Shown: in pieces, positions 10,531-55,250 of the stretch
Layout: each line of letters begins with the position of its first letter
Numbering within the stretch: position 1 is the stretch's first letter
Origin: an uncultured Acidimicrobiia bacterium
Lineage (GTDB): Bacteria; Acidobacteriota; Terriglobia; Versatilivoradales; Versatilivoraceae
Length of the DNA: 64,000 nucleotides
Reading direction: 5' to 3'
NCBI GenBank assembly: GCA_963786955.1
Contig: CAWBAT010000005.1
Span: 608,001-672,000 of the forward strand
The notes under the pieces: model-generated
The model's input: the letters and a program-made list of their open reading frames with translations, nothing else
The model's database searches: none
Told to the model about the DNA's origin: nothing
Program-made: the position numbers and the translations under genes

Positions 10531-10642
10531 TTATGATTTCTGGATTATTCGAATTTGAGCATGGAGACACAATAACAGGAACAACGTACGCAGTTCCAAA
10601 AACGACGACTTTTCCAGTTTGGGTTTTCCCGTTTTCCTCGAT

Positions 10643-10853: not shown

Positions 10854-10923
10854 TTCTTCCTCTAATGTGAACCAAAATACACGAAGCCCGATCCCTTAAG
10901 TATTTGGACACTCTCTTCCTGAT

Positions 10924-12792: not shown

Positions 12793-12859
12793 TCAGGACT
12801 CCTCGGGATGAAACATCTCATTATTTTTCTTATTATTTGCGATCGGCTATTTTCAATTT

Positions 12860-15755: not shown

Positions 15756-15795
15756 AAGGATTTTCTCCTTGAATGGACTATAATCCTGAAAAATC

Positions 15796-16797
15796 ATGCC
15801 TCAATTGGAGGTCTCAGTGGAACAAGATCTTTCTCGTGAATTCCTGAAAGTGGTCGAAGAAGCGGCCATTGCTTCAGCCAGAACAATGGGTTTTGGGGAA
15901 CGAAAAGTCTCGGATCATGCCGCCGTCCAAGCCATGCGCAAAGTGATGGACACCATTCCCATGAATGGGACAATCGTCATCGGCGAAGGCGAACGCGACG
16001 AGGCTCCCATGCTCTACATTGGAGAAAGAGTTGGGAGGAGCGGGCCCGACCAGGCTCAAAATCATGAAGTCGATATCGCTGTCGATCCTCTGGAAGGCAC
16101 CAATCTATGCGCCATGGGCACTGCGGGAGCGATAACAGTTTTGGCCTGCTCTGAGAAGGGTGGGTTGTTGCACGCGCCGGATTGCTACATGGAAAAAATC
16201 ATCGTGGGGCCTTCCTGTAAGGGAGCTATCGATCTGAATGCCCCGGTGAAAGACAACCTGCGCGCCATTGCCAAAAGGTTGGACCGGGACATTGAAAATC
16301 TGGTAATCGTGATTTTGGACAGGCCTCGACATGCGCAGCTGATTGCCGAGATTCGCGCAGCCGGAGCACGAATTCGCCTCATTTCCGATGGGGACCTTTC
16401 GGCTGGAATCAGCGTGGCCTTGCGCGGCACAGGCGTTCACGCCGTCATGGGAAGCGGCGGGGCTCCGGAAGGAGTGCTGACGGCGGCGGCACTCCGATGC
16501 CTGAATGGGGAAATTCAGGGGCGTCTGGTGATCAAAGATGAAAGACAGGCCGAACGCATGACCCAAATGGGAATTCGAGATCTCAAGAAGATTTACTCGA
16601 CAACGGATCTGGCGTCGGCCAAGAACATTATTTTCGCAGCCACCGGGGTCACGGATGGAACCCTGCTCAAAGGAGTGCGTTTTTTTGCTGTTGGAGTGCG
16701 AACCCAGTCACTTTTGATGAACCTGGCCCACCGGACGGTGCGATTTGTGGATACAGTCCATCTTTCCGACCGGCCAGACGTGCAAGTGAGGTTCTAG
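15796..16797 (+). CDS. glpX: Class II fructose-1,6-bisphosphatase
   Basis: [49 protein letters not shown]. Confidence 0.96.
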
Positions 16798-16844
16798 ACT
16801 TTGAAGGGCCCTCTCAGAGGAGCACTGGAATTACGATAAAACCC

Positions 16845-17060
16845 ACCTTGGGTGAAGGATCGAGAGAAGTCCTCTCTTGGGAGGGGAGTGCAGCTTTGAG
16901 AAAGCTGCACGCTCCAGCCCTTAGGGGTGGGTGCGGTTCCCGCTGGGAGCGCGAGTATCCTACCCGCATTTCGTCAATAACAAACCCACCCCTACGCCCC
17001 TCCGACGGAAAGGAATCACAACAATACCTGTCTTGTGGGGGTAGATACGCCCCGCACAAA
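16845..17060. repeat. GC-rich palindromic intergenic repeat
   Basis: aggggtgggt...acccacccct inverted pair; related to the 10643 element. Confidence 0.55.
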
Positions 17061-17199
17061 TGTTCTAGCACGAAAATAAGACAACAAAAACCGATGGGGA
17101 GTCCCCGATTGACTAAACGCTGGTATCAGGCATAATCAACTCAAGTCGTCAAAAGCCTCGAGGCAACGAGGACGAATTTTTCTCAGCCTAATTATTCAA

Positions 17200-18696
17200 A
17201 TGACAGAAGAACTTCTTTCACCCTCCGAGAATTCTCGCAAGCGTGTCGTCCTAGTCGGAGCCGGAGACGCGGCCCTGGGTCTGGCTAAGGAACTTGCATT
17301 GAACCCTAACCTAGGGGTTCACCCCGTGGCAATCGTAGATGATGATTCGTGCAAGCACGGTACGACGATCTGCAATGTACCCGTTGTGGGGTTTATCCAT
17401 GAGCTTGAGAAACTTGTCAGAAACAACGAAGTCGATGAGGTCTTTATCTGTATTCCAAGCGCCACTCGTTCCGAGATCAGCAAGATACTGGCTATCTGCT
17501 TGAGCTGTGGAATCCCAGTCCGGACGTTGCCTTCCCTGGGCGAGTTGATCAACAAACGCACGAGTTGGCGAGAGTTACGCCAGCCTTGCATTGAAGACAT
17601 TCTCCAGCGCGCCGAGATTCTTTTTGAAACCAACACAGTTTGTGAAGTGATTCGCGGAACGACAGTCCTAGTAAGTGGCGCCGGTGGCAGTATTGGTTCA
17701 GAGTTATGCCGTCAGATTGCAGCAGCAGATCCTCGCTGCCTCTTGCTTCTTGATAAGTCGGAAAACAGTTTGTTTTATAGGAACTTAGAGATACGCGACC
17801 ATTTTCCCAACCTTCGAACCCATCCATTGCTCTTGGATGTCGTCCAAAGGCAGCAAGTTGAAAGGGTATTCCGCGAATTCCGCCCGGAATTGGTCTTCCA
17901 TGCAGCTGCATTTAAGCACGTCGGTTTGTGCGAGGGTCATCCCGTCCAGACAATGCAGAACAACGTCATAGGGACTCGCAATATCGCCATGGCGGCTGCG
18001 AGCGCAGGAGTCCATCGATTCGTCAATATTTCCACGGATAAAGCGGTCAAGCCTACGACAATCATGGGCCTGAGCAAAAAATTGACAGAATTGTCTATCC
18101 AGGAGATATCCAGGTCCTATCCCGGACGATTTTCCAGTGTCCGTTTCGGGAATGTGGCTGGAAGCACTGGAAGCGTCATTCGTTTGTTCTGGGACCAAAT
18201 CCAAAAAGGCGGACCTTTACGAATCACAGACTCGAGAGCCACCAGATACTTCATCGCCATTCCCGAGGCCGTGTATTTAATTATCCGGGCTGCTCAACTC
18301 TGCAGAGGCGGTGAAACATTCGTATTTGATATGGGAAAGCCCATAAGCATTCTTGAACTCGCAAAGACTCTCTGCTTACTTTCAGGGCTCAAACCCTACG
18401 TGGACATCCCGATTGAGTTCGTTGGCATTCAAGAGGGTGAGAAGATAAACGAAGAGCTTTGGGAGGACTGGGAAAAACCCCGGAGAACTTCAACCGACGA
18501 GATTTTGGTCATTGCAGAGCGAGATCCAAGATCTTTTGGAATTCTCAAGGCTATTGAGAAACTCGATAGTTACATAGAAGAAAATAATGCCATCGAACTC
18601 GTGGAGTGCGCGCGACACCTCTGTACTGATGTCAGGAGAACATCGGAGGATCCCGATGCGCAGCGCCAGTGCCTGGTCGCGAGGAGCAAAGCATGA
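17200..18696 (+). CDS. CapD/PglF-like UDP-sugar 4,6-dehydratase (no N-terminal TM region)
   Basis: VGAGDAA, GAGGSIGSELCRQ, FHAAAFKHV, ISTDKAV, VRFGNV. Confidence 0.92.
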   Translation: MTEELLSPSENSRKRVVLVGAGDAALGLAKELALNPNLGVHPVAIVDDDSCKHGTTICNVPVVGFIHELEKLVRNNEVDEVFICIPSATRSEISKILAICLSCGIPVRTLPSLGELINKRTSWRELRQPCIEDILQRAEILFETNTVCEVIRGTTVLVSGAGGSIGSELCRQIAAADPRCLLLLDKSENSLFYRNLEIRDHFPNLRTHPLLLDVVQRQQVERVFREFRPELVFHAAAFKHVGLCEGHPVQTMQNNVIGTRNIAMAAASAGVHRFVNISTDKAVKPTTIMGLSKKLTELSIQEISRSYPGRFSSVRFGNVAGSTGSVIRLFWDQIQKGGPLRITDSRATRYFIAIPEAVYLIIRAAQLCRGGETFVFDMGKPISILELAKTLCLLSGLKPYVDIPIEFVGIQEGEKINEELWEDWEKPRRTSTDEILVIAERDPRSFGILKAIEKLDSYIEENNAIELVECARHLCTDVRRTSEDPDAQRQCLVARSKA

Positions 18697-33747: not shown

Positions 33748-34863
33748 CTACGGCACTAAGCGAGTCATAGTCAAGAAAGTGACCTGTTTCTGAGACTCAG
33801 CCCGTGCCATCGGGGAATAGTAATATTTCAATGTTGCCGTAATGCGAGTCTGAGCGCCCTGCGGGATGGGGAATGAGAAAGATTCAGTCCGTTTCTCATC
33901 CGGGGCTAGGCGAGTGTCTGTCAACACCTTGGCACCTTTAAGAAACGCCAGGTGCTCCACGGATACAGGATTACCTTGCTGATCGGCTACCGTCCGCCGA
34001 TAAATCCGCTCTTCCCGGAACTGCTTTCCTCCACCAGCATCAGCACGGACCTCCATGATGAGTTGGCGCAACGGGGATCCAGTCGGGACGTAATGTCCTG
34101 CTCCCTTATTGGAGATTTGAACGGTAACCTGCAATTGCCCATTCTTCCTGGACGTGTTCAGTGTCAGCAGCACCGTCTTGGTCAAGAGGTCCAAGGAATG
34201 GCTCCCTGGCATCTGGTGCAAGTTGATTTTTGCCAAATTCGTTCGCTGGATCCGTGGATCCACTACGTCCCCTGCCACCCGCGACATGTGACAGGATTGG
34301 CATTGGGTCCCTTCTTTTCCGTAGCGGCTGTTCTTCCATTCGGAGTAAGTGGTAAGAACGGAAAGCCCCTGCGCATTTTGATACTCGTGGCAGGGCGCAC
34401 AAATCAGAGCAGAAACGTGGACCTCGGAAAATTCTGTGCCGTGAGCCGTCGAGCTGGCATCTTTTAAGGGTCCGCTCTTAACCAACGTGTAGGTTACGGA
34501 CGCTTTGGGATTCGGTCCACTCAATGAGACTTGTCGAACGGAATGGCAATAATCGCAGGTCACTCCCTCCCAACTGATCTTTTTCTGCAAATTCCAATCT
34601 CCGACTGCCACTCCGACCGGTGAATGGCATTTAAGGCAAGTCTTGCGCCCGTTGGCGCCAAATTCCGTCTCTGCGAGCTCCATCGCATCCTGAAAAATTC
34701 GGCTTTCCATGGCCTGGGCGTGGGAAGAGGTTTTCCAGGCTTCAAAGATTGCTCGATGGCAACGGCCGCAGAGTTCAGCACTGGAAGGCGGATCGAGTTG
34801 CACGGCTTGGGCAGCGCCACAAAAGCTCAGGATGAAGAGAGATAACCCGGCCAATCGCTTCAT
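33748..34863 (-). CDS. Pentaheme c-type cytochrome (c554/c552-like) with C-terminal beta domain
   Basis: CGRCH, CLKCH, CDYCH, CAPCH, CQSCH; signal peptide; GHYVPTG. Confidence 0.88.
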   Translation of the reverse strand: MKRLAGLSLFILSFCGAAQAVQLDPPSSAELCGRCHRAIFEAWKTSSHAQAMESRIFQDAMELAETEFGANGRKTCLKCHSPVGVAVGDWNLQKKISWEGVTCDYCHSVRQVSLSGPNPKASVTYTLVKSGPLKDASSTAHGTEFSEVHVSALICAPCHEYQNAQGLSVLTTYSEWKNSRYGKEGTQCQSCHMSRVAGDVVDPRIQRTNLAKINLHQMPGSHSLDLLTKTVLLTLNTSRKNGQLQVTVQISNKGAGHYVPTGSPLRQLIMEVRADAGGGKQFREERIYRRTVADQQGNPVSVEHLAFLKGAKVLTDTRLAPDEKRTESFSFPIPQGAQTRITATLKYYYSPMARAESQKQVTFLTMTRLVP

Positions 34864-36123
34864 GCCTTCCCTCCGCTTTGGTCGGAAGGCTTGGCCTCAA
34901 TGGAACGAATGGTTAACCAAAGACCACCCATCGTGACCAAAATCGTCAATAACGAAAATGCTAGTCCCACACGGCGGAATCTCCGTTCCTTTAGCGCGTC
35001 CGACCCCGGCCTGATGAGTTTCGGCAGAAATCTTCAGACCCTCATTCACAGGGAGTGCAATCTGAGAAACCTGAAAGGCATGGACCGCCACTCTCGCCTT
35101 GACCAGCGACTCCTTAGCTTCCTGTTGACGCAATAAGGCTTCCGAGACCTCCATACCGGAGCGTCTCGCGACAGTCAGAATCTCATCGGAGCGTTGCAGA
35201 GCAGACTCAAGGCTATGGATCTTTCCCGCCATTTCGACAGACGCTTTTCCTCCTGCCGAATCCCCATCGTGACATTGGCTGCAGACGGCATCAGGCCCAG
35301 CCAACATTTGCTCAGAGGGTTTGAGGACAGCGTGGTTACTATGACAAACAACGCAACCTCCCATTCCCATCTCCGCGAATACCGGCTGATGCGGGCTCTT
35401 ACGGTAAAGATCTTCGAACAACGCGTGGCATGTTCCGCACACGGCAGCCACCGAGCTGACTTGAGGCGGCGCAGCCCCGTGGTTCCCATGGCAGGATGCA
35501 CAACTGGGAGCCGAGATGTCGCCACGTTTGGCCAGTGCTTCCCAATGAACGCTCTTTCGATATTCTGCGAATTGGTTCGTGGGAATCTTGTACTTGCTCA
35601 TGTGGGAAGCGTCCGCATGGCAACGCGCACACGTTTCGGGTAGGCGCAGAGGATAAACCGGGGAGCGCGGATCCTTGACTTCGCGAATGTCGTGGACACT
35701 GTGACAATCGACACAATTAGCTGCCGCAGCATCTCCGGCGGCGATTCTCTTGCCATGGACACTGGTGAGATACTGAGCATATTGATCCACCCGCTGCTGC
35801 GGCTTGAACTTGTGAATGAGGTTCGCGTCACTATGGCAACGGGCGCAAAGCTTGGGGACATCCACACGCTTGATTTTTCCAACAAAACCACGCGCCCGGC
35901 TCATCGCCGCTTCCGGGTCGTCCTGATTCGAATCCCCTCCGTGGCAGTCCACACAACTGAAACCGCGATGCTGATGAATATCTGTCGGGAAAGCCAGCGC
36001 CGGCGCCTGCAGATTATCTTCGAGTGCCGCGTGGCACTCGATGCAAGAATCCTTTGCCCCAAGACTCTGACTAAACACTGCCATCCAAAATATAATGATC
36101 AGTGGGTATCGGTAAGTGATCAT
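34860..36123 (-). CDS. Nonaheme c-type cytochrome with C-terminal membrane anchor; frameshift near 35000
   Basis: 9 CxxCH; shifted frame gives ALKERRFRRVGLAFSLLTILVTMGGLWL, ending in an ATGA overlap with the next gene. Confidence 0.85.
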
Positions 36124-37215
36124 CGATAGTATCCCAAAAGTGAGAAACTTATGAGGTAGACGAGCAATGCAAGACCTAAGGCAGTCACCCATCGTTTTCG
36201 ATCAACTCCTTCTCGATTGGTCCCCCAGAAAGGCAAAGTCACCCACCAAATCGCGAGAACGCCAAAACCGAAAAGACCTAGCAATTCACCTTCGAAAAAC
36301 CAAACATGACTGGGGATCAGCTTCAAGGTATAGAAAGGAGCTAGAAAATACCATTCAGGCCGGATGCCGGCAGGGGCTGAGGCGAAGGGGTCTGCTTTTT
36401 CTCCCAACTCCCAAGGAAACAATGCAGCCAGCGCAGCCTAGCACCCCCAGAGCACCGTACCAGGCCATCAATTCCCGAAGGAAAAAATTGGGGAAGAAGG
36501 GCATTTGCGGGATGGGGGTCCGCCTGCGCTGGTATTCCTTTTCTACCCGGGGAGGAGAACTCATCCCAAATTTTTGAATCAGAACCAAGTGCACAACCAG
36601 ACACAGAGTCGCTAATCCAGGAAGAACTGCAACATGAAAGCCGAAAAACCGCGTCAGGGTTGCGCCGCCTACCTCATCGCCGCCACGCAAAAACCTCGCC
36701 AGGTAAGGTCCAACCCACGGGACGCTGGCAGCCATGTCAGTTCCTACTTTGGTGGCAAAATAGGAGACCGTATTCCAAGGAAGCAGATATCCACTAAACC
36801 CGAACCCTAATGCCAAACCGAGTAATGCAATCCCGCTTAGCCAGGTAACTTCGCGAGGTCGGCGGTAGGCTCGCAGAAATACCACACTGAACATATGGAT
36901 GAACGCAGCCAGAATCATCAAATTGGCAGACCAACTATGGACGGATCGGACCAACCAGCCAAACTGCACCCTCGTCACAATGAATTGCACGCTCTCATAG
37001 GCTTCCGTCGGAGTGGGTCTATAGTAGAGGAGTAACAAAACGCCTGTGAGAACTTGAATGACAAACAAAAAAAGAGTGATCCCGCCGAAGTAATACCAGA
37101 TCGTCGAGGAGTGCACCGGCACGGTCTTATGGCTCATGAATTCTTGAACCGATTCAAGACCTAACCGCTCCTCAAACCATTCCTTTACACGTTGTGTCGT
37201 TGCCTTGGCAGTCAC
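36120..37215 (-). CDS. petB: Cytochrome b of a Rieske/cytb complex; frameshift near 36435
   Basis: [36 protein letters not shown]. Confidence 0.92.
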
Positions 37216-37234
37216 AAGTACCCTTTCCTATAAA

Positions 37235-37666
37235 TTAGGCTCTCTTGGATATAACAATTTCATCACCCCGGACGTGGACGGCATATTCTTCCAGAGGTCT
37301 GGGCGGGGGGCCGGACACTACTTTTCCGTTCATGTCATAGAATCCATTGTGACAGGCACACCAGATTTGATGAGTAGACTCCTGAAATTGGACGGTGCAG
37401 TTCAAGTGGGTGCAGATGGCAGAGAAAGCACGCCATTCTGTATCGCTGGTCCGAATCAGTAAGGCAGGGCGGCTGCCGAACTTCACGATCTTGCCCGAAT
37501 TCGGTTTAAGATCCTGAACCTTTCCTGCAGCAACCTCATTCGTCGAGGCCTCTGGAACCGCGGGTGGGAGCATGAATTTGGACGCTGGATAAAGGAACGA
37601 AATGATTGAAGCCAGGAAGCCACCTCCCAGGATCCACCCGACAAAGTTCCGGCGGTATTCAGCCAT
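37235..37666 (-). CDS. Rieske 2Fe-2S protein
   Basis: RRNF Tat motif; CTHLNC and CACH; GPPPRPL. Confidence 0.93.
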   Translation of the reverse strand: MAEYRRNFVGWILGGGFLASIISFLYPASKFMLPPAVPEASTNEVAAGKVQDLKPNSGKIVKFGSRPALLIRTSDTEWRAFSAICTHLNCTVQFQESTHQIWCACHNGFYDMNGKVVSGPPPRPLEEYAVHVRGDEIVISKRA

Positions 37667-38129
37667 TGCCCCCTCCAGCGTCAGCCCCACCCACTCAGTG
37701 GGAACGGAAATGAGATAACTTCAAGAAATTACATCAAGAACAAATTATCCGAACAACCTCTTTTGAACAGCAGCCAGCACCCGCTTATTTTTACCTGGTC
37801 GAATGAGGAGAGTAGCACGATCAATACCATAGTCCGAGGGAGCAGCAATTCCAAGGCTCTGGAAAACCAGAGCCAGTGTTCGAGAATTTAGTCTGGCTCC
37901 TTTAAAAACTCAGAAGTGCTGCTTAAATAGAGCGTAAGCGACTCACTTTAATGGTGCTTTGTTACCGCATCATTCAACACCGGAAATTTCAAACCGATGG
38001 AGGTTCCTTGAGGGCCGGACTCTGGGGGATGTCATCCAATGATTGTGGCAATTCACCCATATTGTTCATTTGGATGGAACTATTTTCCGCACCTCTGACG
38101 TCGGATTAAGCGGGTGAGATGCCAGCACT

Positions 38130-43696: not shown

Positions 43697-44125
43697 AGGA
43701 GCCTCCTTGCGGGAGCGAGACTAACCTCATTCAATCGGCTCAGCGGCCTTATCAATAGGTGTGCATGATGGATACCAAAACAAAACATGAAGGGACAGGT
43801 TCGAGATCGGAAGACAGATAAAGCTTTGGAGTAGGCAGCAGAAGAGCAGCTCTCTGCGGTAATTCACCCGCCTTGGGGCAAAAGAGCCGATGGTTTGATA
43901 AGCCGAATTGTGCTATGAAGATATGGAGCACGGAAGGAGTTCCCGCAAGAAGGAGGGTTGTTCACTGATAGCTCCTTGCCGCTTCACCGCCTGCCGGGGA
44001 ATAGAGCTAAGGACTTTGACACGAGGATTGGCGGATAGACAAGACCATCCCGCCAACTGGAAGTTTGCATGCCTAACCTGGCGAGTGTGAATCATTGGAG
44101 ACCCGCTCTTGGTTTGAAATTTAAT

Positions 44126-44139
44126 TTGAGGTTCATCAA
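44126..44139. promoter_or_regulatory. FNR/CRP-type box
   Basis: TTGAG-GTTC-ATCAA, one mismatch to TTGAT-N4-ATCAA, about 55 bp before the ATG. Confidence 0.55.
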
Positions 44140-44194
44140 ATGATATCGCTTTCGAAGCGCCTGAATAGAGGCCCGTCACCATCTTAATTTACTG

Positions 44195-45658
44195 ATGCGG
44201 CTGGCGAAAAATCCCATTTCGCTTCTCGGAATTATCATCACTACGGTCAGCGGCATCCTGATATTCATCCTGACCATCATGGGGTTTCTCGAGTACCTGG
44301 CTAACCCCTACGTCGGGATCATCACCTTCCTCATCCTGCCTGCCTTCTTCATTACAGGTTTACTTCTCATTCCGATAGGGATCTGGCGGATCAAGCGCCT
44401 CCGCCTCCGCCTGCTGGCCGCCGGGAGCACCGTTCCAGAACTTCAGTTTCCGATCTGGAATTTCAATGATGCACGGGTTCGAAGGATTGCAACATTTGTC
44501 ATCATCGCTTCCGTCGTGAATGTGCTCATCCTATCGACGGCTACCTATAAAGGGATTCACTACATGGAGGGTGTCGCTTTCTGTGGAACGGTCTGTCATG
44601 CCGTGATGAAGCCGGAGCACACAAGCCATGAAAACTCACCGCACTCCCGCGTAACCTGCGCCAGTTGCCATATCGGACCCGGGGCACCCTGGTTTGTAAA
44701 ATCAAAGCTTTCCGGAGTTCGTCAGGTTTTCGCGGTCGCACTCCATACCTATAGCACGCCTATCGAAACACCTGTCCGGAATCTGCGTCCTGCACGGGAT
44801 ACTTGCGAGCAGTGTCATTGGCCTGAAAAATTTCATGACGACCGAGTAAAAGTGATTCAAAAATATAAGGACGATGAAAAAAATACCCCCATCACAACGG
44901 CATTGTTGTTAAAGGTGGGAGGATCCCGGGACAATGCTCGGAAATGGCAGCGGAATTCACTGGTGGCATATGGCTCAAGTCAATAAAGTGACCTATATCG
45001 CCGACGAGAAGCGGGAAAAGATTTTCTGGGTTGAACACCAGAACATGAAAGGAGAGGACACTGTCTTTGAATTAGAAAACTCCGGCATCTCACCCCAGGA
45101 ACTCAGCAAATATGAAAAGAGGGTCATGGATTGTGTTGACTGTCATAACCGTCCGACGCATATTTACAAACTTCCCGAAGAGGCAGTTGACCAGGCGATC
45201 AGTGCTCATCAGATCGACGAAAGCCTCCCTTTTATCAAGAAGGAGGGGGTGGTTTTGCTCAGAGGCAAACTATCCGAGTGACGTGGAGGCGAAACGCCAA
45301 ATTGAGTCCGGAATGATGAGTTATTATCAAAAACTATACCCGCAGGTCTATGAGACCCAGAAAGTCCAAATTCAACAGGCAATCACGGCTTTGCAGAACA
45401 TATACTCCCGGAATGTGTTCCCTGAAATGAAAGTTGCATGGGGTACCTATCCAAACCATCTTGGGTCATGAGAACTTTCCGGGCTGTTTTAGGTGCCATG
45501 ACGACAGTCATAAGAGTAAGAGTGGCAAAACGATCACGCAAGATTGTAGTGCATGCCACGATCTCCTCGCGGTCGAGGAAGAGAAGCCACTCGCTATTTC
45601 TGAAATTTTGCAGGGTAAGAATCCCCGCAATAAATTCCTGGATGGCCCACGGACTTAG
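44195..45658 (+). CDS. ImcH-like inner-membrane multiheme cytochrome (NapC/NirT-related); three frameshifts (~44935, ~45270, ~45462)
   Basis: 3 TM helices; CGTVCH, CASCH, CEQCH, GIHWWH, MDCVDCHNRPTH, GCFRCH, CSACH. Confidence 0.8.
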
Positions 45659-45836
45659 TACTCCATTTCATAAATACGGTGATGTATCTTAGTACTGCTA
45701 TTCGTAATTGCGGTGACGTATCTTAAGAATAGGCGCCGCGTGGGGTTGAGGCTTTGAGAAAGCCTCAACGGCCTACAAAGTTGCAGGCCGGGTCACCGAC
45801 CCGGCGTTAACGTGATCGAATTTCTGAAAGCCAGAC
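45658..45836. mobile_element. MITE-like REP element (copy 3, inverted, with duplicated end)
   Basis: Two gtact..taa.t.cggtga ends (45658, 45692); ggcgccgcgtgggg..ggcctaca..aggccgggtcaccgacccggc. Confidence 0.7.
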
Positions 45837-46163
45837 CAAAGTACATCCAAAAATTTGCCAGACGACACTAAAGCCAGAGTTTACAGGTATGAGGGTCAAT
45901 TTTTGGTGCAAGTCACCGCTGGACAGAGAAGGCTTCTTGCGCTAAATTAATCAACACAATCGGATTAATTTGCAGATTTTCTCAACACAATCCGATTCAA
46001 TCAGTTAATAATTGTTTACTTGCTCTGCATTCGTAACTGTGGGGGAAATAACCGGCTTTGGATTAAAACTCCCTCTCCAAGTTCTTTCACAGAAAAAATC
46101 TAGCAATCATTTAACCTATTCATAAATAACTATTTAATAGAAAATATTTATTTTTTTTACCTT

Positions 46164-46192
46164 TGGCAGGAAGCTTGCGAAATTATTCACCA
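46164..46192 (+). promoter_or_regulatory. Sigma54 promoter overlapped by a Rex-like palindrome
   Basis: TGGCAGGAAGCTTGC (GG-N10-GC); TTGCGAA-ATTA-TTCACCA; AT-rich tract upstream. Confidence 0.6.
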
Positions 46193-46223
46193 GACAAGTA
46201 GGGATAGAAGGGAGAAGGTTGAC

Positions 46224-47183
46224 TTGAAAAGGAATCGTGTAATTGTCATTTTTTTATTCGTTTTTGCGGCAACCTCGGGAACATGGCTGCTGTTTCATCG
46301 AGCTCCACGCCCAGGTTCTCTATCGGATGTCAAGAAACGCCCTGAACTCCGTCCGTATTTTTTGTCGGCCTTGAAACTAGACCAGCCCATAGCTAAGGTT
46401 GGGTCAAATGAACTCAAGACTGATGAATTACGCGATTACCTGCTGTTGACATTTCAGGGCCAGATGACCCAGGTTTCTATCCCCCAGCCCGATCTGGTGG
46501 CAAAAATTTCTGGGGCTCTAGACCGGTTGATTGACGAAGAACTGCTGGCGCAAGCCGCGCAAAAGGAAGGCCTGAAAAGCTCTTTAGAGGGAGTCGAGAG
46601 GAAGCAAGACTTGGCGAAGAAGTATCTTGAAAGCCAGCTCGCAAAAGAGCCGCCCGTAAGCGACGTTCAGATGCGCGACTTTTACAGAAACCATGGTGAG
46701 AAGTTTTTGATTCCAGCCGGGGTTCAACTCCGAGAATTTTTCATACCTTTCACAGGGGAGAAGAGCAAAACGGGTAAAAAAGATTCTGCTTTTGATCTGG
46801 CCAAGGATCTAGCCGATCGAGTCACTAAAGGTGATTCAATCGAAGAGCTCAGTAAGAAATATGTTTCAGAAGAGTATCGGGAGAGAACCCAAATTCACCT
46901 CTACAAAGGCGGCGTGACAGAACCAGTCGATGATCAGAAGGTGCTGGCGCTCCGACCGGGTCAAAGCGCCGGGCCTTTCCGTACCGAAGGCGGGTATTCC
47001 GTTTTTCAAGGGATCTCCCAGGAACGAAGTCGGTTTATTCCGTTTTACGAAGCCAAGGCTAAGATTCAATTATTTCTGGAAGCACGTCGGGTCGAGAATT
47101 TGAGGCAAAAGCTCGTGGATCAACTGAAGCAGCAGATTCCGATCGAGCGATACGAAATTGATAAACTGATCACAGTCAGTTGA
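46224..47183 (+). CDS. Parvulin/PrsA-SurA-like periplasmic chaperone-PPIase
   Basis: N-terminal TM; LDRLIDEELLAQAA, GPFRTEGGY. Confidence 0.75.
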   Translation: MKRNRVIVIFLFVFAATSGTWLLFHRAPRPGSLSDVKKRPELRPYFLSALKLDQPIAKVGSNELKTDELRDYLLLTFQGQMTQVSIPQPDLVAKISGALDRLIDEELLAQAAQKEGLKSSLEGVERKQDLAKKYLESQLAKEPPVSDVQMRDFYRNHGEKFLIPAGVQLREFFIPFTGEKSKTGKKDSAFDLAKDLADRVTKGDSIEELSKKYVSEEYRERTQIHLYKGGVTEPVDDQKVLALRPGQSAGPFRTEGGYSVFQGISQERSRFIPFYEAKAKIQLFLEARRVENLRQKLVDQLKQQIPIERYEIDKLITVS

Positions 47184-47376
47184 ATTATGCGAAAGAAAGA
47201 TCTCGATAAAACAGGTTCCAACGTCTGGGAAGGTTTAGAGTTGTCAGAGAGTAAGTGGGTCAGGGAGTAGGATGTGGAAACATATTGGGAAGTCGCAGAG
47301 AAGATTAAGATTCTTGGCCCAGCGAAGGAATGGTTGTACGAATTCTTAACATTTACGCCCTTTAACGGAGGATGTT

Positions 47377-49435
47377 ATGGTTAGATCCATATCAAGCCGG
47401 GTAGTCATCATATGCACGCTCCTCTTCCTGTTCCTAGTCTGGATATCCATCCCAGTCTGGGGAAGTACGGTAGGGGACACGAAGCAAGGAGTCCAATTTA
47501 ACAAGCATGAGCTGAGCTATTATCTCGACCAAAGCCAGGTCAATTTTGTCCGCCCTGGACTAAAATTCACGATTAAGGCGGTCACGATTAGCGGCGACTA
47601 ATAGGATTATCGTCACCTTCTTGATTACCGACAACAATGGCTTGCCTCTGGATCGATTAGGTGTCTCTACACCGGGGGTGGTCAGCACTAGTTTCATAGC
47701 CGCATATATTCCCAAGGATCAATCGCAATATACTGCTTACACAACTCGAATACAAACTAGTCCTATCAACGGAGTAAAGGCTGTGCAAGCCGGTACGGAT
47801 TCAGGTGGAACTTATGCACAATTGTCTGATGGCCTGTATACATACACTTTCAATACGGTGCTGCCCTCAAATTTTGATCGAAACATGACTCATACTGTGG
47901 CTCTCTATGGTTCACGCAACCTCAGCGAATTCGATCTTGGGATTCAATATGATAACAAAACAATTGACTGGGTCCCGAGCGGTGCTCCGGTCACTGTCGT
48001 ACGCGACGTTGTCGTCACAGCGACCTGTAACCAATGCCACGATCCTTTGGCACTTCATGGAGGATCACGACGGGAAATCAAGGTCTGCGTGACCTGTCAC
48101 ACCCCTCAAACTACCGATCCGGATACCGGGAACACAGTTGACATGAAGGTCATGGTCCACAAGATCCATGCCGGACCCAACTTGCCTAGTGTCAAGGCTG
48201 GGAAACCGTATATTATTATTGGCAATAGGCAATCGGTGAATGACTATTCTAATGTAACTTTTCCCCAAGAGCTCAACCACTGCGAGGGCTGCCATACTGG
48301 CAAAGGCACTCAAGTCAACAACTGGCTCTTGAAACCCTCTCGTGCGAGTTGCGGCTCCTGTCATGACGATGTGAATTTTGCAACAGGTGATAAACATGCC
48401 GGCGGCCCGCAGCCGTCGGACAACCTTTGCGCCAATTGTCATGTTCCTGAAGGAGAAGTGGATTTCGACGCGTCCATTAAAGGCGCTCATGTGATCCCAA
48501 CATTATCCAAGGATTTGCCTGGGGTCAATTTTGAAATTTTGAACGTCAAAGACACCAAGCCCGGCAACAAACCGACAGTTACACTGAAGATCACGGATGA
48601 CGACGGTTTCCCAATCGAAACCTCTCAGATGAACAGTTTAAGCTTAGTATTGGCCGGTCCGACTACTGACTACGCAGGCTTTGTGTCTGAAAATGCGCTT
48701 ACAACTAAAAGCCAGGGTGGCATCCTGAACTATACATTCCTGAAGGCTATCCCTGCGGACGCCAAAGGTAGCTATGCCATCTCTGTCCAGGGATACAGAA
48801 ACATAACGCTTCAACCGGGAACCACTAGTGAGGTCAAGGACGTTCGCGATGCAGGATTCAACCCAGTTGTCTATGTAGCGGTGACGGATAGCAAGCCTGT
48901 GCCCCGTCGCCAGGCTGTCTCTCAAGAGAACTGCAACAGTTGCCATGCTCACCTGGCGCTCCATGGAGGGTCCCGTCAAAATGTTATGTATTGTGTCATG
49001 TGCCACAATGCAAATTGGGATGACAAGGCGCGCCGGCCAGCCGACAAACTGCCAGTCGAATCCATCCACATGAAAACCATGATCCATAAGATCCACACTG
49101 GGGAAGAATTGGAGAATGATTTTACGATCTACGGATTCGGAAATGTTCCGGTCAACTTCAATGAAGTAACTTTCCCTGGAGATCGTCGCAATTGTGAGAA
49201 GTGCCATGTCAATGAATCTCAACAGCTACCGTTAGCGAAGGGAGTATTGCCTTCGGTGGCGCCGCGAGATTACATCAACCCGATGAAACCGGCGACAGCT
49301 GCTTGTCTCACTTGCCATACCTCTCAAGAAGCTGCTTCCCATGCGCTCTTGAATACCTCCACCCTTGGAGAATCCTGCAGTGTTTGTCACGGAACAACAT
49401 CCGAATTCTCCGTTGACAAGGTTCACGCGCGGTAA
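47377..49435 (+). CDS. MtrC/OmcA-family decaheme cytochrome; one extra base at 47599
   Basis: GGAGG RBS; 10 CxxCH in two 5-heme blocks separated by beta domains; MVHKIH/MIHKIH; removing T47599 fuses the 74 aa and 604 aa ORFs. Confidence 0.88.
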
Positions 49436-49454
49436 GTCGTTCGCTCGACCCTTA

Positions 49455-49492
49455 TCCAGCCGCTCTTCGCAGGGCGGCTGGAGTTTCTTGTT
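49455..49492 (+). terminator. Hairpin/terminator after the mtrC-like gene
   Basis: TCCAGCCGCTCT-TCGC-AGGGCGGCTGGA then GTTTCTTGTT. Confidence 0.6.
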
Positions 49493-49542
49493 GTGTGAAT
49501 GAAAGGTATCTTCTCACCCCGACCCCTGGAGGTGAGAAGAAA

Positions 49543-49618
49543 TTGTAGCGGCGCTCTATGAGCGCCGACCAAGCCGTTGAGATGAAAAGAAGACGGCGGT
49601 CACAGACCGCCGCTACAA
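49543..49618. repeat. GTAG REP doublet
   Basis: tgtagcggcgctctatgagcgccg ... cggcggtcacagaccgccgctaca. Confidence 0.8.
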
Positions 49619-49783
49619 CCAATTCTTTCACGCCTTCCCTCTCCACTTGGTGAGGGGAACGAATTGAGGATGACCTGAAAGTGTAACTTTACTTCATGCG
49701 TTTGTACGAGACACAAGGACGGAAAGAAGAGGATGCAATCGCTTGCCAACCCATTGTCATCAACCGGAAAGGGTGTGAATGTT

Positions 49784-50737
49784 ATGCCCGTTCGTCTCTC
49801 TAGGAATGCCGCTTTCATCCTGGCGTTCATGTTGACTTTGGTTTTCCCCAGTTTTGCCAAAACGCCCAAAAGTCAGCAAGCCGCGCAAGAGCCGAGCCCC
49901 AAAGCCATCGTGGCTGAGGCAAAGAACGACTATGTCAGCTCAGCTACCTGCTCTTCCTGTCATGAGGCTCAAACGACGAAATTCGCAACCAACCCCCACC
50001 AAATCCTTGATATGAAGGCGGATAAGGGTTGGAAAGATCGTGCCTGTGAAGCCTGCCACGGTCCTGGACAAGCCCATGTCGATGCTGGAGATGGAAGTCA
50101 TGTCGTTCTTCTTAAAAGCAGCTCGACGAACGCCGAAATCAACAAGACCTGTCTCAGTTGCCACGCGGACAGCAACACGCAGGCAGGGGGGCCCAACAAC
50201 TTGCATCGAAAGGAAAACCTGGCCTGCACAGAATGCCACTCAATTCACGAACCCAAGCAGAAGCAGCATTTGCTGACAGCAAGCGTCGATCGAGTTTGCA
50301 CGGCCTGCCATAAGGATGTTTTAGCAGCGTTCTATATGCCCTTTCATCATCGATTACTCGAAGGGGCTATTCACTGTGTAGATTGTCACCAGCCGCACAG
50401 CGGCCTGATGCCCAAGATGGCCAGACTTTCTTTTGGAAATGAATCGCCCTGCGTCAAATGCCATTCCGACAAGCGGGGGCCCTTTGCCTTCGAGCATCCC
50501 GTGATGCGCCTCGAAGGATGTATGGCATGCCACGCACCTCATGGTTCCATTAACTCCAAGATGCTCATTCGGACGCAACTCAGCTTGATGTGTCTGGAAT
50601 GTCACACTTTTACCCCTGGAGTTTTGGCCAGTCAGCCTCCATCGTTCCATGATTTGCGTAGTGCCCGGTTTCGGAATTGTACGACTTGTCACGTCAAGAT
50701 CCATGGTTCCAATGTGGACCGATTCTTAAGGCACTAA
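49784..50737 (+). CDS. MtrA/DmsE-family periplasmic decaheme cytochrome
   Basis: 10 CxxCH; CEACHGPG..H, GPFAFEHP, terminal CHVKIHGSN. Confidence 0.92.
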   Translation: MPVRLSRNAAFILAFMLTLVFPSFAKTPKSQQAAQEPSPKAIVAEAKNDYVSSATCSSCHEAQTTKFATNPHQILDMKADKGWKDRACEACHGPGQAHVDAGDGSHVVLLKSSSTNAEINKTCLSCHADSNTQAGGPNNLHRKENLACTECHSIHEPKQKQHLLTASVDRVCTACHKDVLAAFYMPFHHRLLEGAIHCVDCHQPHSGLMPKMARLSFGNESPCVKCHSDKRGPFAFEHPVMRLEGCMACHAPHGSINSKMLIRTQLSLMCLECHTFTPGVLASQPPSFHDLRSARFRNCTTCHVKIHGSNVDRFLRH

Positions 50738-50749
50738 CAGAGCTAATCC

Positions 50750-52842
50750 ATGCGAAACCTGAGAAAAATGCGCCAGACGGTTCCTCAGTTCTTTACAGGT
50801 TGGGTTCCTCTACGTCTCCATACCCAGCGGCGACGGGGCCCAGGAATGTTTTTCTTCTTGCTCATACTGAGCTTCGGGGGGAGTTTTCTTCACGCGCAAG
50901 AGCGACCGTTTGAAAATCCCAAGTCGGCCCCGGACACTGGCAATCCGGTTCTGATTCGTGGGATGGAGGCTACCGGGGTCGTCGATGTGGGTTATCGCAG
51001 TATTGCCGGATTTAACGGGAGTCAAGACTACTATCGGAGTGTTGTCAACCTGGGTAATGGCCCACGCCTTCTCTTCGCGAATATGGATTTTCAGAGCCCA
51101 CTGGGGACCAAGAAATATTTCGACAAGCTTCATTTCGATGCGTCGGCTTGGGGTGGTGATCCTTACAACACCATTCGCGTCTATGCGCAAAAAGCCGGAG
51201 TTTATGAGTTCAATTTCAATTACCGGAACGTGGATTACTATAATTATATCCCCACTTTTGCCAACCCTCTGCTGCTCGAAGGAGTCCTGGTAGGTCAGCA
51301 TTCATATGATACGGCGATTCGCACTATGGATTTTGATTTGACCCTTCGTCCGGGAAAGAAAATCTCTCCATATTTTTGCCTACTCTCGATCTTCTGGTTT
51401 TGGCCCGGGAATCACCACATTCACCGGAGCCGGCAACGAATTCCCCGTTAACAACAATGTGAGCAACAGTAGTAACTATTATCGTGGTGGTGTGACACTG
51501 AATCTTCGCAAGACTAATCTGATCTTCGAACAGGGCGTCGTGTCGTTTAAAGACGATCAAACGGTTTACTGGCAGGGAGGAGTGAATAAGGGAAACCGTA
51601 AAACACCCCTGCTTGGTGAAACAACCTATCTGGATCAACTCGACGAGTACTATCATGTACGTGGGACAACTCCAGTCAGCCGATTTCAAATCGTATCGAC
51701 ACCATGGGAAAAATTGACTGTCACCGGCCGGTTCGTCTATACCCAGCCGAATTTAGAATTTTGATTATAACCAACGCTCTGCCGGGAATTTTGTTTCTTT
51801 TGAGGTGGCAAGGATTTTCACCGGCGATGTCTCTAATGCCGTTTCAGACGGAAAGTTGCCGCACATTCTGGGAAACGTATCCGTTGAATATCGACCTTGG
51901 GAAAGGGTTCGGATAATCGACAATCTGATCACGGACCGATTTCATACCGACCCCAGTTCTACTCTCGGGCGCACCTTGACTGGTACCGATCCTCTGTCTG
52001 GCTCTCCGGACCCTGACGGGACGTTTAGCTATACCACGACAGATTCGAATCGTCTGGCTGTGAATCTGAATCAAAATCAGTTGGAGGGAATCGTCGATCT
52101 CACCTCCAAACTCTCAGTACGAGGCGGTTATCGCTACGTGTGGTCTGATACCCAATTAGTCTCATTCAATCTGGAGGGCGAAAACCAGGCCATTAGCATC
52201 AACCGCAATGTGGCGATAGCAGGGTTTAATTACCGGCTGCAACGTAAGGCCAGCCTGGGGCTGGATTTAGAGATTGGCCAGGGGAACCGAGTCTTTTCTC
52301 GAACGGACATTCTCGATTACCAGAAAGTTCGCATCCGTGGGCGTTACAAGATCTGGAACCCCCTGGTGATTAGTGGATCCTATTTTCTGCTGAACTACCA
52401 AAACGGCCAGCGGGATATCGATTACAATTTCAATAGTTACGGTTACAGCCTTTCCGCCATTGTGGCTCCCAAAGGCGGGAAGCGATTCATGGCGACCTTG
52501 GACTATTCCAAAGGCGATCTTAATTCGGATATTCTAATCCTGATTCCTCAAACTCTGACGAGGAGTCAATCCATTTATATTGAAAACAGTAATTTCGGAA
52601 ACTTGAACCTTGATTTCGGGATCTACCGGGGTTTTCGATTTAATTTGGGCGGTTCGGTGATGACAACCTCCGGGAATCGTCCGCTGAATTATTATCAGCC
52701 CCACGCCGGTTTTCTCATTCCCCTGGGTAGCAAGTTGTATTGGACAACCGAATGGCGTTATTACGACTTCAATGATAAAGAATTTGCTTTCCAGGATTTT
52801 AGAGTTCACCTGATTACCGCCGGAATTCGATTCCGCTATTGA
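50750..52842 (+). CDS. MtrB/PioB-like outer-membrane beta-barrel; frameshifts near 51380-51410 and 51760
   Basis: Amphipathic beta strands, Tyr/Asn-rich, C-terminal GIRFRY; directly after the MtrA-like gene. Confidence 0.75.
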
Positions 52843-52912
52843 TTTTTCCGATATGACGCATGGTCCATTTGCCTGCATAGAGCGCATCCTGCACTCGAGG
52901 AGAGGTGCAAGT

Positions 52913-54079
52913 ATGAGAGTAGCTGCTGCCATACTGATTGGCCTGTTGGGGACGCTTTCGTCCCTGGGACAAACACCTCAGAAGGTGAAGCTTTCTGATT
53001 TCAAGCTCGCTTCGAGTTGCCAGCCCTGCCACGAGGAGATTTATGCTCAGTGGCAAACCTCGACCCATTCCAAGGCATTTGTCGATCCTTTATACCAAGC
53101 AGTTGTCCGTAAAGCCGTCGAGGAAAGCAAAGGGGGCTTAACCCAATTTTGTGTTTCCTGCCACGCACCCCTGGCGACCGTCACCAGTTCCATTCCACCC
53201 GATCTGTTTCAGAAAGAGCAGATAGACCCACGGATTGAGAACGGGGTAACCTGCGAGTTCTGCCACACGATCTCTGGTAACAGAAGTGAACCTTAACAAA
53301 CTCAGTCTCGGGGCTTTCCTTTTCCCAAGAGCTATCCAAACGAAAATTCTTTACGGACGGCATGCGGATGCTACCAACGATGCGCATCCGACCCAACCCT
53401 CGCCGTTTCTTGTTGTCCCGGAATTATGCGGGACCTGCCATCGATTTGGACACCCCGTTTCAGGGATGCCGGTTCAAGACACCTATCAGGAATGGAAGCA
53501 AAGTCCCTATGCCGCAAAAGGGACCCGATGTCAGGATTGCCATATGCCCTCGTATCAGGGGAAAGTGTCTGAGTCAGGCAAAGAACGTTCTGAAATTCAT
53601 GCCCACATTTTTAGGGGCGGACACACGGAAATGATACGACAGGCGGCCATCGTCAATATCACGGCTAATCGAGACTACATCGAACCCCTAGATGCGTCGG
53701 TGGTAGTCACTAATGTCGGAGCCGGCCATATGATCCCGACCGGACTCCCTGCTGTCCGTGAGATGTGGTTAGAGGTTACAGTCCAGAGCCAAGGGAAAAT
53801 CTTGAGTACTCAAAAGAGGGTTTTCGGCCTGGAAGTTCTCAATGCGGAAGGGAAGCCGGCTTTGCCGTGGGAAGCCACGAAGCTCGGGAAAGACACCCGG
53901 ATTGCCCCTAAGAAATCCCGTTTAGAGAAGTTTCGATTCGAGGTTTCCGGTTCGGAAAACATTCGCATTGAAGCCAAGCTCCAGGAACAATTATTGTCCG
54001 ACCAGGCCGCCAAATTTGCTGGCATTCCGCCCACTCCGCCTCAATCGATGGCAGAAACATCGATCTCCTGCCTCAATGA
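52913..54079 (+). CDS. Pentaheme c-type cytochrome (paralog of 33748..34863); frameshifts ~53285 and ~54065
   Basis: CQPCH, CVSCH, CEFCH, CGTCH, CQDCH; GHMIPTG; DTRIAP. Confidence 0.82.
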
Positions 54080-55005
54080 GTTCAGCTCCGGGTACCGAGG
54101 AGAATTTCCCTCTCCAACAGTTCGCGATGCGGCTTTCTTTGGCCGTGGGCTTTTTCATGCTCGTGACCAAAACCTTCGCCTACTGGCTGACTGGGTCGGC
54201 CGCAATCCTCTCTGATGCTGCAGAATCCGTCGTCCATGTCGTTGCCGTTTCCTTTGCGGCTTACAGTCTTGGCTCAGTGTCAAACCGGCGGACCGCAGCC
54301 ATCTGTACGGACATGATAAGATCAGTTTCTTCTCGGCGGGGTTTGAAGGGGCGATGATCATCATCGCCGCTTTCTATATCATCTATGTTTCAATTGAAAA
54401 ATGGATTTCAGGGCTGAGGCTGGAGCACCTTGGCACGGGAACGGGCCTGACCTTATCTGGCCTCTGATCAACGGCGGCTTAGGTCTTTATCTGGTCACCA
54501 TTGGGAAGAAGAAACCACTCTCTAATTCTTGAGGCCAACGGGAAACATGTCCTCACGGATTGCTGGACAAGTCTGGGCGTTGTCGTCGGCCTGTTCCTGG
54601 CCATGATCACGGGCTGGTTGGTTCTGGATCCGATTATCGCGATCCTGGTAGCTTTAAATATCCTGTGGACCGGCGGTCAATTAATCCGCCGATCCATCGG
54701 TGGTTTAATGGATGAGGTGGATCCGGAAACAGAGGCAAGAATCAAGAGCATGCTTGACCCGATTACCAAACCCAAGGCATCGAATACCATAGTCTGCGAC
54801 ACCGGAACACGGGAAGTACGCTCTGGATCGAACTGCATATGCTTTTCCCCAAAGGGATCCTGCTGGAAAACGCTCACGCGATCGCCACCCAGATTGAAAA
54901 CCGTTTAAAGACAACCTTCCCACTAAGACCGAAGTAACCACCCATTTGGAAACCCTCGAAGACCATGCGGATATTCATACCGACCGGCACGACCAAGGAA
55001 CGTGA
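54076..55005 (+). CDS. Cation diffusion facilitator (FieF-like); several frameshifts
   Basis: TGSAAILSDAAES, HLYGHDK, ANGKHVLTD, LDPIIAI, LENAH, THLETLE. Confidence 0.85.
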
Positions 55006-55250
55006 GCACGAAATCGGAAGGTTAAGATGAGCGGTAAGAGAGTGACCTTTTAAAGTCACAGGATCTGCACCTCCATCTCCCCACTCGATACGATGACCCG
55101 TAAAAATCGGATGACTCACGAATTGTCCAGCTGGAATTACAGATAAGTCCAATCATGTCCGAGACCTCCTCCTTGATCTTCAGACCGTCCATTTGTGCAT
55201 CGACTATCATTTTGTGATCGTTTCATTTTACGAATGGCACTTCGCAGAAC

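Follow-up and report, generated by a model that had tools for sequence, protein, structure and literature searches.

Extracellular electron transfer in Shewanella runs through MtrCAB (solved as 6R2Q), two ten-haem cytochromes and an outer-membrane barrel encoded in the order mtrC, mtrA, mtrB, and the quinol-oxidising role at the start of this pathway is taken by CymA, a short NapC/NirT-superfamily protein with a single transmembrane helix. In Geobacter, the inner-membrane cytochrome ImcH is recognised by three transmembrane helices, a NapC/NirT-like region, and a first haem motif of the form CXXXCH followed by CX2CH motifs (PMC4251993, PMC6295460; statements from cited papers, here and below, refer to the portions of their text that were available). 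MtrCAB is already known in Acidobacteriia (PMC8805035), and ImcH homologues outside the Proteobacteria are most numerous in Acidobacteria (19 of 71; PMC6295460). The window analysed here, a stretch of 64,000 nucleotides (nt) from contig CAWBAT010000005.1 (positions 608,001 to 672,000), carries relatives of both systems within a run of six genes at 44195–54079 on the forward strand. These encode, in order, an ImcH-like cytochrome, a protein with a peptidyl-prolyl isomerase (PPIase) domain, MtrC-, MtrA- and MtrB-like proteins and a pentahaem cytochrome. Several of the genes are interrupted by frame breaks, which are most likely assembly errors. The sequence evidence suggests that this is probably a working, or only very recently broken, electron transfer locus of a Terriglobia-like acidobacterium.

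The conduit genes and the ImcH-like cytochrome

All six genes were found as same-strand neighbours at the coordinates that an earlier note on this DNA had given, and the coordinates and frames of the broken pieces are those of their open reading frames (ORFs). Gene 3 (47377–49435; two pieces, frames 0>1) encodes a putative extracellular cytochrome with ten CXXCH motifs. It matched TIGR03507 with 527.3 bits against a cut-off of 209.3 (E = 6e-158) and PF22113 with 173.9 bits against 30, and its sequence matches in the PDB were MtrF (3pmq, E = 4e-28), OmcA (4lmh) and MtrC (6r2q_C). Gene 4 (49733–50737; intact, with a likely start Met at 49784 preceding a signal peptide) encodes a putative periplasmic cytochrome, also with ten CXXCH motifs, all of which are invariant across 13 homologues. 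It matched TIGR03508 with 239.2 bits against a cut-off of 192.2 (E = 5e-71) and chain A of 6r2q with E = 1e-31. Genes 3 and 4 are shown by these family matches to be members of the OmcA/MtrC and DmsE/MtrA decahaem families, as the earlier note had proposed. The N-terminus of the MtrC-like protein, MVRSISSRVVIICTLLFLFLVWISIPVWGST, has its sole Cys within the hydrophobic core, with no small residue ahead of it, and when read by eye shows no canonical lipobox, which sets it apart from Shewanella MtrC.

Gene 5 (50750–52842; three pieces, frames 1>2>0, likely start Met at 50846) has no haem motifs and encodes a candidate outer-membrane beta-barrel; its intact homologues are 616–789 amino acids (aa) long. 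Homologous loci were drawn from a set of 49, collected by a scan with the MtrC-like protein over one genome per species. One of these, L028, supplied an unbroken barrel gene (L028 14360–16480), which was modelled with AlphaFold2 in place of the broken window gene, using an alignment of 17 rows (14 intact homologues and three pieces from the window). The model (pLDDT 81, pTM 0.73) has 28 DSSP strand elements, two of which are possibly one strand. Its best fold match in the PDB is MtrB itself (6r2q_B, E = 6e-13, TM-score 0.62/0.67, with 13% identity in the fold alignment), and the next are 22-strand TonB receptors at TM-scores of about 0.4. Prediction of a complex between L028 MtrB (residues 83–706) and L028 MtrA (140–420) gave 0.89 in three runs, the best of three controls giving 0.00. 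Among solved complexes 116 of 157 reach this mark, and among mismatched pairs 2 of 215. The runs had at least 83% of their contacts in common and a partner pLDDT of at least 80, and the contacts lay on strands around the whole barrel. The modelling thus showed gene 5 to be one of a family of barrels of which the member modelled folds like MtrB and is predicted to enclose its own MtrA, in line with the porin of about 26–28 strands, fitting MtrA, that had been anticipated.

Several results weigh against so close an assignment of the window's own barrel. Pfam MtrB_PioB (PF11854) reached only 19.3 bits on gene 5, below the cut-off of 23, and at E ≤ 0.01 it matched 3 of the 17 rows (best 4e-8), one of these three being the window's own C-terminal piece; the family search suggested by the earlier note therefore had a divided outcome, failing at the cut-off and succeeding on those few rows. 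The 17-row profile found nothing among PDB sequences at E ≤ 1. The L028 barrel is only 33–40% identical to the window pieces and, since 6R2Q is a solved structure, the score of the L028 complex may be memory of it and is read as likeness, not as binding by the window copy. Taken part by part, the locus resembles Shewanella MtrCAB in having the same three components in the same gene order, with both decahaem cytochromes above the family cut-offs. It differs in its partners, the inner-membrane one being not CymA and the periplasmic candidates not CctA or FccA.

Gene 1 (44195–45658; pieces 44195–44986, 44934–45281, 45112–45471 and 45434–45658, frames 1>2>0>1) encodes the putative inner-membrane partner. 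Six haem motifs were found, CGTVCH (a CX3CH motif, in the piece 44195–44986) followed by CASCH, CEQCH, CVDCH, CFRCH and CSACH. Unbroken orthologues are present in the two closest relatives of the locus (L001 6705–8195, 496 aa; L002 6719–8212, 497 aa), and in these a Kyte–Doolittle scan located transmembrane helices at residues 28–46, 59–77 and 116–134, with the CX3CH motif at 148 and CX2CH motifs at 173, 222, 331, 448 and 468. The description of a cytochrome with three transmembrane helices and about six haems is therefore accurate. Pfam Cytochrom_NNT (PF03264) matched gene 1 with 35.3 bits against a cut-off of 24.1, which answers the question of NapC/NirT membership raised by the earlier note. 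An NrfH-like NCBIfam match was found in the window (E = 5e-11), TIGR03153 (NrfH) matched over residues 120–227 (E = 3e-12), and the sole solved sequence relative, NrfH (2j7a_C, E = 4e-5), covers the same residues.

Published features of ImcH could be followed one by one. The Geobacter protein GSU3259 has CX3CH as its first haem motif, directly after the membrane domain (PMC4251993, Fig. 1 legend; PMC6295460), and Table S3 of PMC6295460 places its transmembrane helices at 13–35, 45–67 and 100–122, and those of a Solibacter homologue at 20–42, 57–79 and 110–132. In ImcH proteins between five and nine CX2CH motifs follow the first motif, and gene 1 has five. The haem motifs of gene 1 are spaced 25/49/109/117/20; in the same table GSU3259 has 24/49/106/117/20/38 and several ImcH homologues from acidobacteria have 24/49/109/117/20. 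Among 135 homologues of gene 1, 133 have one CX3CH and five CX2CH motifs. In all 134 homologues with six motifs, three of the spacings are fixed (first 25, second 49, fifth 20); the third ranges over 102–120, and the fourth is 117 in 119 of them and 118, 121 or 122 in the other 15. The offset of one residue in the first spacing, being uniform in the 134 homologues, looks like a numbering convention of the table. The haem 1 ligands of ImcH are H137 (proximal) and Q179 (distal), and E127, K173 and Y188 are conserved (10.1101/2023.05.03.539133). If residue 132 is taken as the first Cys of GSU3259 (from Table S3 and H137), the window piece and its orthologues carry E, K, Q and Y at the corresponding positions (−5, +41, +47 and +56 from the first Cys). 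None of the 134 homologues departs from the K and Q, and all have D or E at −5.

On this evidence, the sequence of gene 1 is shown to be built throughout like those of the ImcH family, which are menaquinol-oxidising inner-membrane cytochromes of the NapC/NirT type; every published sequence feature was found, and the identity given in the earlier note stands at the level of sequence. In ImcH, menaquinol oxidation is needed for the use of extracellular acceptors of high potential. It shares with GSU3259 the three N-terminal helices, the leading CX3CH, the NapC/NirT/NrfH-like region, near-equal spacing of the first six motifs and the same acidic, Lys, Gln and Tyr residues around haem 1. It differs in genetic setting, Geobacter imcH having been described as monocistronic (PMC4251993) whereas the gene here adjoins an Mtr-type conduit.

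Two points tell against the assignment. The seventh, C-terminal haem motif of GSU3259 and the Geobacter clade was not found in gene 1 or its orthologues, which have six motifs only. However, proteins with six motifs (from Solibacter, Geothrix and Anaeromyxobacter) are counted as ImcH homologues in Table S3 of PMC6295460, and the seventh haem therefore marks the Geobacter clade and not the family. In addition, membership rests on published coordinates and residue numbers: no Table S3 entry was found by accession in the cluster members of 10 of the 120 listed hits, and none of the 135 homologues matched an entry by length and motif positions. Look-alikes in the ESM Atlas fell in generic 'NapC/NirT family cytochrome c' clusters, most commonly from Acidobacteriota, Pseudomonadota, Thermodesulfobacteriota and Chloroflexota, and serve as a lead, not a test.

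CymA was rejected as an identity for gene 1. The two share a superfamily and a role at the head of an Mtr pathway, but CymA is a tetrahaem protein with one transmembrane helix, whereas the gene 1 protein has 496 aa (in its unbroken form), three helices and six haem motifs. Within the available text of PMC6295460, CymA homologues were found in Proteobacteria only.

Linkage of imcH-like genes to mtrC

The window is syntenic with two of the 49 loci, L001 and L002. L001 has 88–90% DNA identity to the window across about 22 kb. L002 lies on a contig of a Terriglobia metagenome-assembled genome (MAG) with 72–76% identity to the window, and this contig ends within the spacer behind mtrA. The source had been described earlier as a probable acidobacterium, which is supported because the flanks too, and not just the locus, align to L002. 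Acidobacterial lineages also appear in the titles of 27 further loci, among them Bryobacteraceae, Solibacter, Paludibaculum and Thermoanaerobaculia. The L001 record is labelled, possibly wrongly, as an uncultured Acidimicrobiia bacterium, its next relative being the Terriglobia MAG.

Fourteen of the 49 loci, with three phylum-level labels between them, have an ImcH-like gene no more than 10 kb from mtrC. Eleven of these are among the 28 acidobacterial-type loci (L001 counted); ten of the 18 acidobacterial-type loci that also show mtrA, and five of the 11 with full flanks, have the gene. The remaining three, among 21 other loci, are two gammaproteobacterial MAGs and one spirochaete MAG. Linkage at this level is far above the approximately 1% that we estimate for a gene with few copies per genome. 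In L028 the mtrB, tetrahaem and imcH-like genes each overlap by 4 nt. Synteny in these 49 loci, a comparison of the kind that had been proposed as a check, supports the association.

The available text of PMC6295460 states that no mtrAB or mtoAB was found adjacent to imcH, and that of PMC8805035 reports no inner-membrane quinone oxidoreductase near the mtrCAB genes of its Group 5 Acidobacteriia. The linkage in 14 of 49 loci contradicts both statements as they stand there, and corrects two published generalisations, that imcH never lies beside mtrAB and that acidobacterial mtrCAB is without a nearby inner-membrane partner. The Group 5 loci are acidobacterial like the present one, and five of the loci examined here (L003, L008, L009, L026 and L028) have the tetrahaem gene described for that group directly behind mtrB. 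The window, L001 and L002 differ from Group 5 in having imcH-like and PPIase-like genes ahead of mtrC, and in the present locus a pentahaem gene takes the place of the CcoP-like tetrahaem gene behind mtrB. L026 and L028 have an inner-membrane quinone oxidoreductase just behind the tetrahaem gene, in contrast to the published account of the group.

The pairing of Mtr conduits with different inner-membrane partners is an established idea (PMC8805035), and one Desulfuromonas expresses homologues of ImcH, CbcL and Mtr, which are given at separate accession numbers (PMC12133095). A literature search, with subscription journals and figures outside its coverage, found no description of imcH beside mtrCAB. 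The parts of the locus are of known families; what is new is this inner-membrane partner, this pentahaem, and their recurrence. The earlier note had called the locus a hybrid of a Geobacter-type entry and a Shewanella-type exit. The components and their linkage stand, and 'hybrid' is kept as a label of history; it is not a statement of origin, because ImcH and MtrCAB were both already known in Acidobacteria. A published judgement speaks against such a function: cultured Acidobacteria with mtrA/mtrB candidates were considered not to use Shewanella-like or Geobacter-like Fe(III) reduction, according to the accessible text of PMC5900883.

In some loci a CbcL-like gene, with 9–11 haem motifs and an FdnI-like / formate-dehydrogenase-gamma-like b-type membrane domain, lies directly before the imcH-like gene, near mtrCAB. 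It was located at L025 6352–8109 (reverse strand) and L036 64–2010 (forward strand), both scanned for families, and is probably also present in L018, L026 and L038.

The frame breaks

Eight single-base frame breaks fall in four of the six genes. In the alignment with L001 the window shows seven surplus single bases, at about 44937, 45263 and 45460 (gene 1), 47598 (gene 3), 51372 and 51755 (gene 5), and 53278 (gene 6), none of them within a homopolymer. The eighth break is a missing base at about 54068 (gene 6), four codons ahead of a TGA at 54077–54079. With this base restored, the pentahaem gene ends at the TGA and overlaps the ATG of the next gene, the same as in L001, so that the end coordinate of the earlier note (54079) is the stop of gene 6. 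Unrestored, the frame continues to 54215; homologue lengths of 387–394 aa fit the shorter end. Every break site is read through by L002, L001 or both (the mtrC site by both), and no break is common to the window and either relative. L001 has different indels of its own, two of which compensate each other and scramble about 18 residues of its gene 1; at these residues the window matches L002.

Values of dN/dS between the window and L001 (Nei–Gojobori) are 0.04–0.15 in all 13 pieces, including those behind breaks, and 0.04–0.19 in five intact flank genes. By this measure the pieces are under strong purifying selection, which excludes long-standing decay. A script detected breaks of frame in the mtrC or mtrA matches of five of the 49 loci, and L001 was added as a sixth from its ORF list. 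One long-read series, which supplied 13 of the loci, accounts for five of these six; the remaining one, L002, comes from the other 36 loci. Because loci with breaks are concentrated in one long-read series, the breaks are read as consensus errors, and the eight single-base breaks are most likely products of assembly consensus and not biology. Programmed frameshifting or four-base decoding was considered and rejected, the contexts of the breaks having no common sequence.

The distribution of indels is harder to reconcile with this reading, and as assembled, four of the six genes are untranslatable. Left of 43.7 kb, 5529 nt of coding DNA contain two non-3n indels between the window and L001 (a compensating pair), while about 13.7 kb of coding DNA between 44.2 and 59.5 kb contain 45. 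The indel-dense zone begins at about 43.8 kb in both sequences, the 5.5 kb of coding DNA to the left being clean in both, and extends past the electron transfer genes. Plain random consensus error does not explain this shared boundary. The pattern would suit a genuine, recently decayed pseudogene cluster, in which the frameshifts are real mutations and the conduit is no longer made: eight breaks within 9.9 kb are followed by further ones in the next 5 kb, L001 is broken in the same 15-kb stretch, as expected if selection were relaxed on a dispensable island, and L002 has a break of its own in mtrC. Moreover, dN/dS would not register decay so recent that it had added only about 1% neutral divergence. 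Such a cluster is nevertheless considered unlikely. The pieces show no in-frame nonsense codon, large deletion or insertion element, and seven of the eight breaks insert one base away from any homopolymer, an unusual form for a natural frameshift. Decay would also have to accommodate the low dN/dS of every piece, the lack of any break in common with L001 or L002, and the clustering of broken loci in one assembly series. Consensus error remains the favoured source of the breaks, and frameshift-laden long-read contigs of this kind can conceal such loci from gene callers, a point also made in the earlier note.

The pentahaem, the electron path and neighbouring genes

Gene 6 (52853–54079; two pieces, frames 1>2, likely start Met at 52913 preceding a signal peptide) encodes a c552/ExtKL-like (PHC-type) cytochrome with a C-terminal Ig-like domain. 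Three CXXCH motifs in one piece and two in the other make up the pentahaem that had been predicted. The L001 orthologue is a single ORF (15291–16517, 408 aa) and scored 94.8 bits with NF040886 (ExtKL), far under the cut-off of 250; the family, with 605 matches, is named at most 'multiheme c-type cytochrome'. A model built from 47 rows (pLDDT 88.9) had as its best PDB match 5ze8, cytochrome c552 of Thermochromatium tepidum (TM-score 0.68), and the family profile matched 5ze8 with E = 2e-38 and MccSep (ExtKL, a Geobacter selenoprotein; 9wt8) with E = 3e-17. With c552, PHC and MccSep the protein shares five CXXCH motifs, a haem domain followed by an Ig-like domain, and a conserved G-x-G-H-x-x-P-T-G loop.

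For its activity as a polysulfide reductase, MccSep depends on Cys239, at haem 2, and on Sec325 (10.1101/2025.11.18.688581). HMMER aligned P-T-G-L-P of the pentahaem to P-D-G-X-P of MccSep, placing Leu at the Sec325 position. In the 47 aligned rows this column holds L (20), I (19), V (4), M (2), S (1) and a gap (1), and Cys in none. The 'cc' of MccSep (Cys239) falls in an insert that is missing from the pentahaem, and no Cys was seen in that stretch in the 20 of 47 rows inspected. Membership of the MccSep/ExtKL polysulfide reductases was rejected on the Leu, the missing insert and the NF040886 score, as was identity with the CcoP-like tetrahaem of Group 5, which is unrelated (BLASTP, E = 0.11).

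A paralogue of the pentahaem lies upstream in the window at 33748–34863 on the reverse strand (30% identity, E = 7e-46). It is the last gene of a second respiratory module on that strand (33748–37690), preceded by genes for a Rieske protein (37235–37690), cytochrome b (36355–37215 and 36120–36422) and a nonahaem cytochrome (34897–36192). Because the two pentahaem copies each adjoin a quinol-oxidising module, a role as periplasmic carrier is proposed. This offers a testable role for a c552/ExtKL-like family to which none has been assigned outside the MccSep reductases. It counts against the reading of the locus that the carrier role is deduced from gene position, and that the solved relative c552 is without an assigned function in the available text of PMC11976967.

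The same module raises the possibility that the neighbouring genes do not form one chain. The ImcH-like protein might feed some other periplasmic reductase, or the pentahaem might itself be a terminal reductase such as MccSep, with MtrCAB fed from elsewhere, for example by the Rieske/cytochrome b module at 33.7–37.7 kb, which has its own nonahaem and pentahaem. The match of the pentahaem family to MccSep is consistent with this, as are the CbcL-like genes beside imcH-like ones in other loci and the layout of the present one. A spacer of 565 nt (45659–46223) follows gene 1, and a terminator-like hairpin (49455–49482, forward strand; 12-bp stem with 8 GC pairs and a T-rich tail, identified by match to the consensus only) lies 20 nt past the mtrC stop. 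A single transcript is accordingly not assured, which also counts against treating the six genes as a unit. Separate chains are still judged improbable, since the two residues that MccSep requires are replaced by Leu and missing with the insert, no aligned row has Cys at the Sec site, and imcH-like genes recur near mtrC well beyond the expected frequency across three phylum-level labels.

If the genes do act as one chain, menaquinol would be oxidised at haem 1 of the ImcH-like protein, and electrons would pass along its haems in the periplasm to a soluble carrier, the pentahaem encoded in the same locus being the obvious candidate. From there they would enter MtrA threaded through the barrel, and MtrC would hand them to acceptors outside the cell, whether Fe(III)/Mn(IV) minerals, humics or electrodes. 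Gene 2, with its SurA/parvulin-like product, may help to fold or insert the envelope parts, and the coupled cation-diffusion-facilitator (CDF) pump encoded behind gene 6 could expel the resulting Fe(II)/Mn(II). The earlier note had called the chain complete. Each component that it named was found on independent checking; completeness itself is deduced from gene content.

No sequence feature fixes the direction of flow. Electrons can run either way through Mtr conduits, homologues of which occur in Fe(II) oxidisers (PMC6295460, PMC8805035), and the locus could in principle work inwards, like MtoAB/PioAB, with Fe(II), reduced humics or a cathode as the electron source. Against this, ImcH homologues were reported only from Fe(III) reducers in the available text of the 2018 survey (PMC6295460). 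Family scans revealed no mtoC/mtoD-like or Cyc2-like gene in the window. An extracellular MtrC-family decahaem is encoded here, and MtoAB/PioAB systems are not known to have one. Electron uptake is thus thought improbable as the function of this locus, and outward transfer is preferred.

A broader proposal is tentative, and rather more likely to fail than to hold. An ImcH-family protein, sometimes together with a CbcL-like one, may be the native entry of a large non-Shewanella branch of MtrCAB, travelling as a cassette across Acidobacteriota, some Gammaproteobacteria and a spirochaete, with the c552/ExtKL-type pentahaem, in the present lineage, shuttling electrons from quinol oxidases (ImcH-like and Rieske/cytochrome b) to MtrA. 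Acidobacteriota are among the commonest soil bacteria, and little is known of their role in the respiration of iron, manganese and humics; so compact a locus, combining an ImcH-type quinol oxidase with an Mtr-type conduit, would offer them a self-contained route to extracellular acceptors.

The PPIase-like and CDF genes were considered as conserved parts of this cassette and rejected, the former being found, among the 49 loci, in L001 and L002 only, and the latter, among their ORFs, in L001 only. Gene 2 (46224–47183, forward strand; intact, 319 aa) encodes a SurA/PrsA-like membrane-anchored protein with a parvulin-type PPIase domain. Its Pfam scores were 22.8 bits for Rotamase (cut-off 21.7), 26.4 for Rotamase_2 (27) and 21.6 for SurA_N_3 (27.2), and NCBIfam PRK00059 gave 37 bits against a cut-off of 303. 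The chaperone/PPIase annotation of the earlier note is therefore upheld by parvulin and SurA-N matches and weakened by scores at or below the cut-offs, in a gene confined to this lineage. The CDF gene (54076–55008, forward strand; Mn/Fe type, in pieces) has a start codon that overlaps the stop of gene 6 (ATGA) and possibly belongs to the same operon. Its window pieces match Pfam Cation_efflux, and the intact L001 copy (16514–17446, a single ORF of 310 aa) scored 221 bits for the CDF superfamily (cut-off 82), 241 bits for MntE and 146 bits for FieF. In Shewanella, a ferrous-iron CDF exporter aids iron respiration.

The spacers of the locus contain lineage-specific inserts, at window 45657–45838 (a 182-nt stretch missing from L001, in the spacer behind gene 1), window 49582–49653 and L001 13094–13234. 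Two of these contain short G+C-rich palindromes, that of the window (CCCTCTCC..GGTGAGGG) being found once in the window. A scan of the whole window with Rfam gave nothing at gathering scores. The G+C content at 44000–48000, covering the imcH-like and PPIase-like genes and early mtrC, is 0.46–0.48 against 0.50–0.55 across most of the window, a weak hint of foreign origin.

Elsewhere in the window, a formate-dehydrogenase/NuoG-like gene at 9496–14515 (reverse strand) looks permuted. Selenocysteine read-through of this gene at 9496 was rejected, as the stop is not TGA. Its Fe-S N-terminal part lies at 9496–10530 and its molybdopterin part (from profile position 103) at 12860–14515, beyond a NuoF-like gene.

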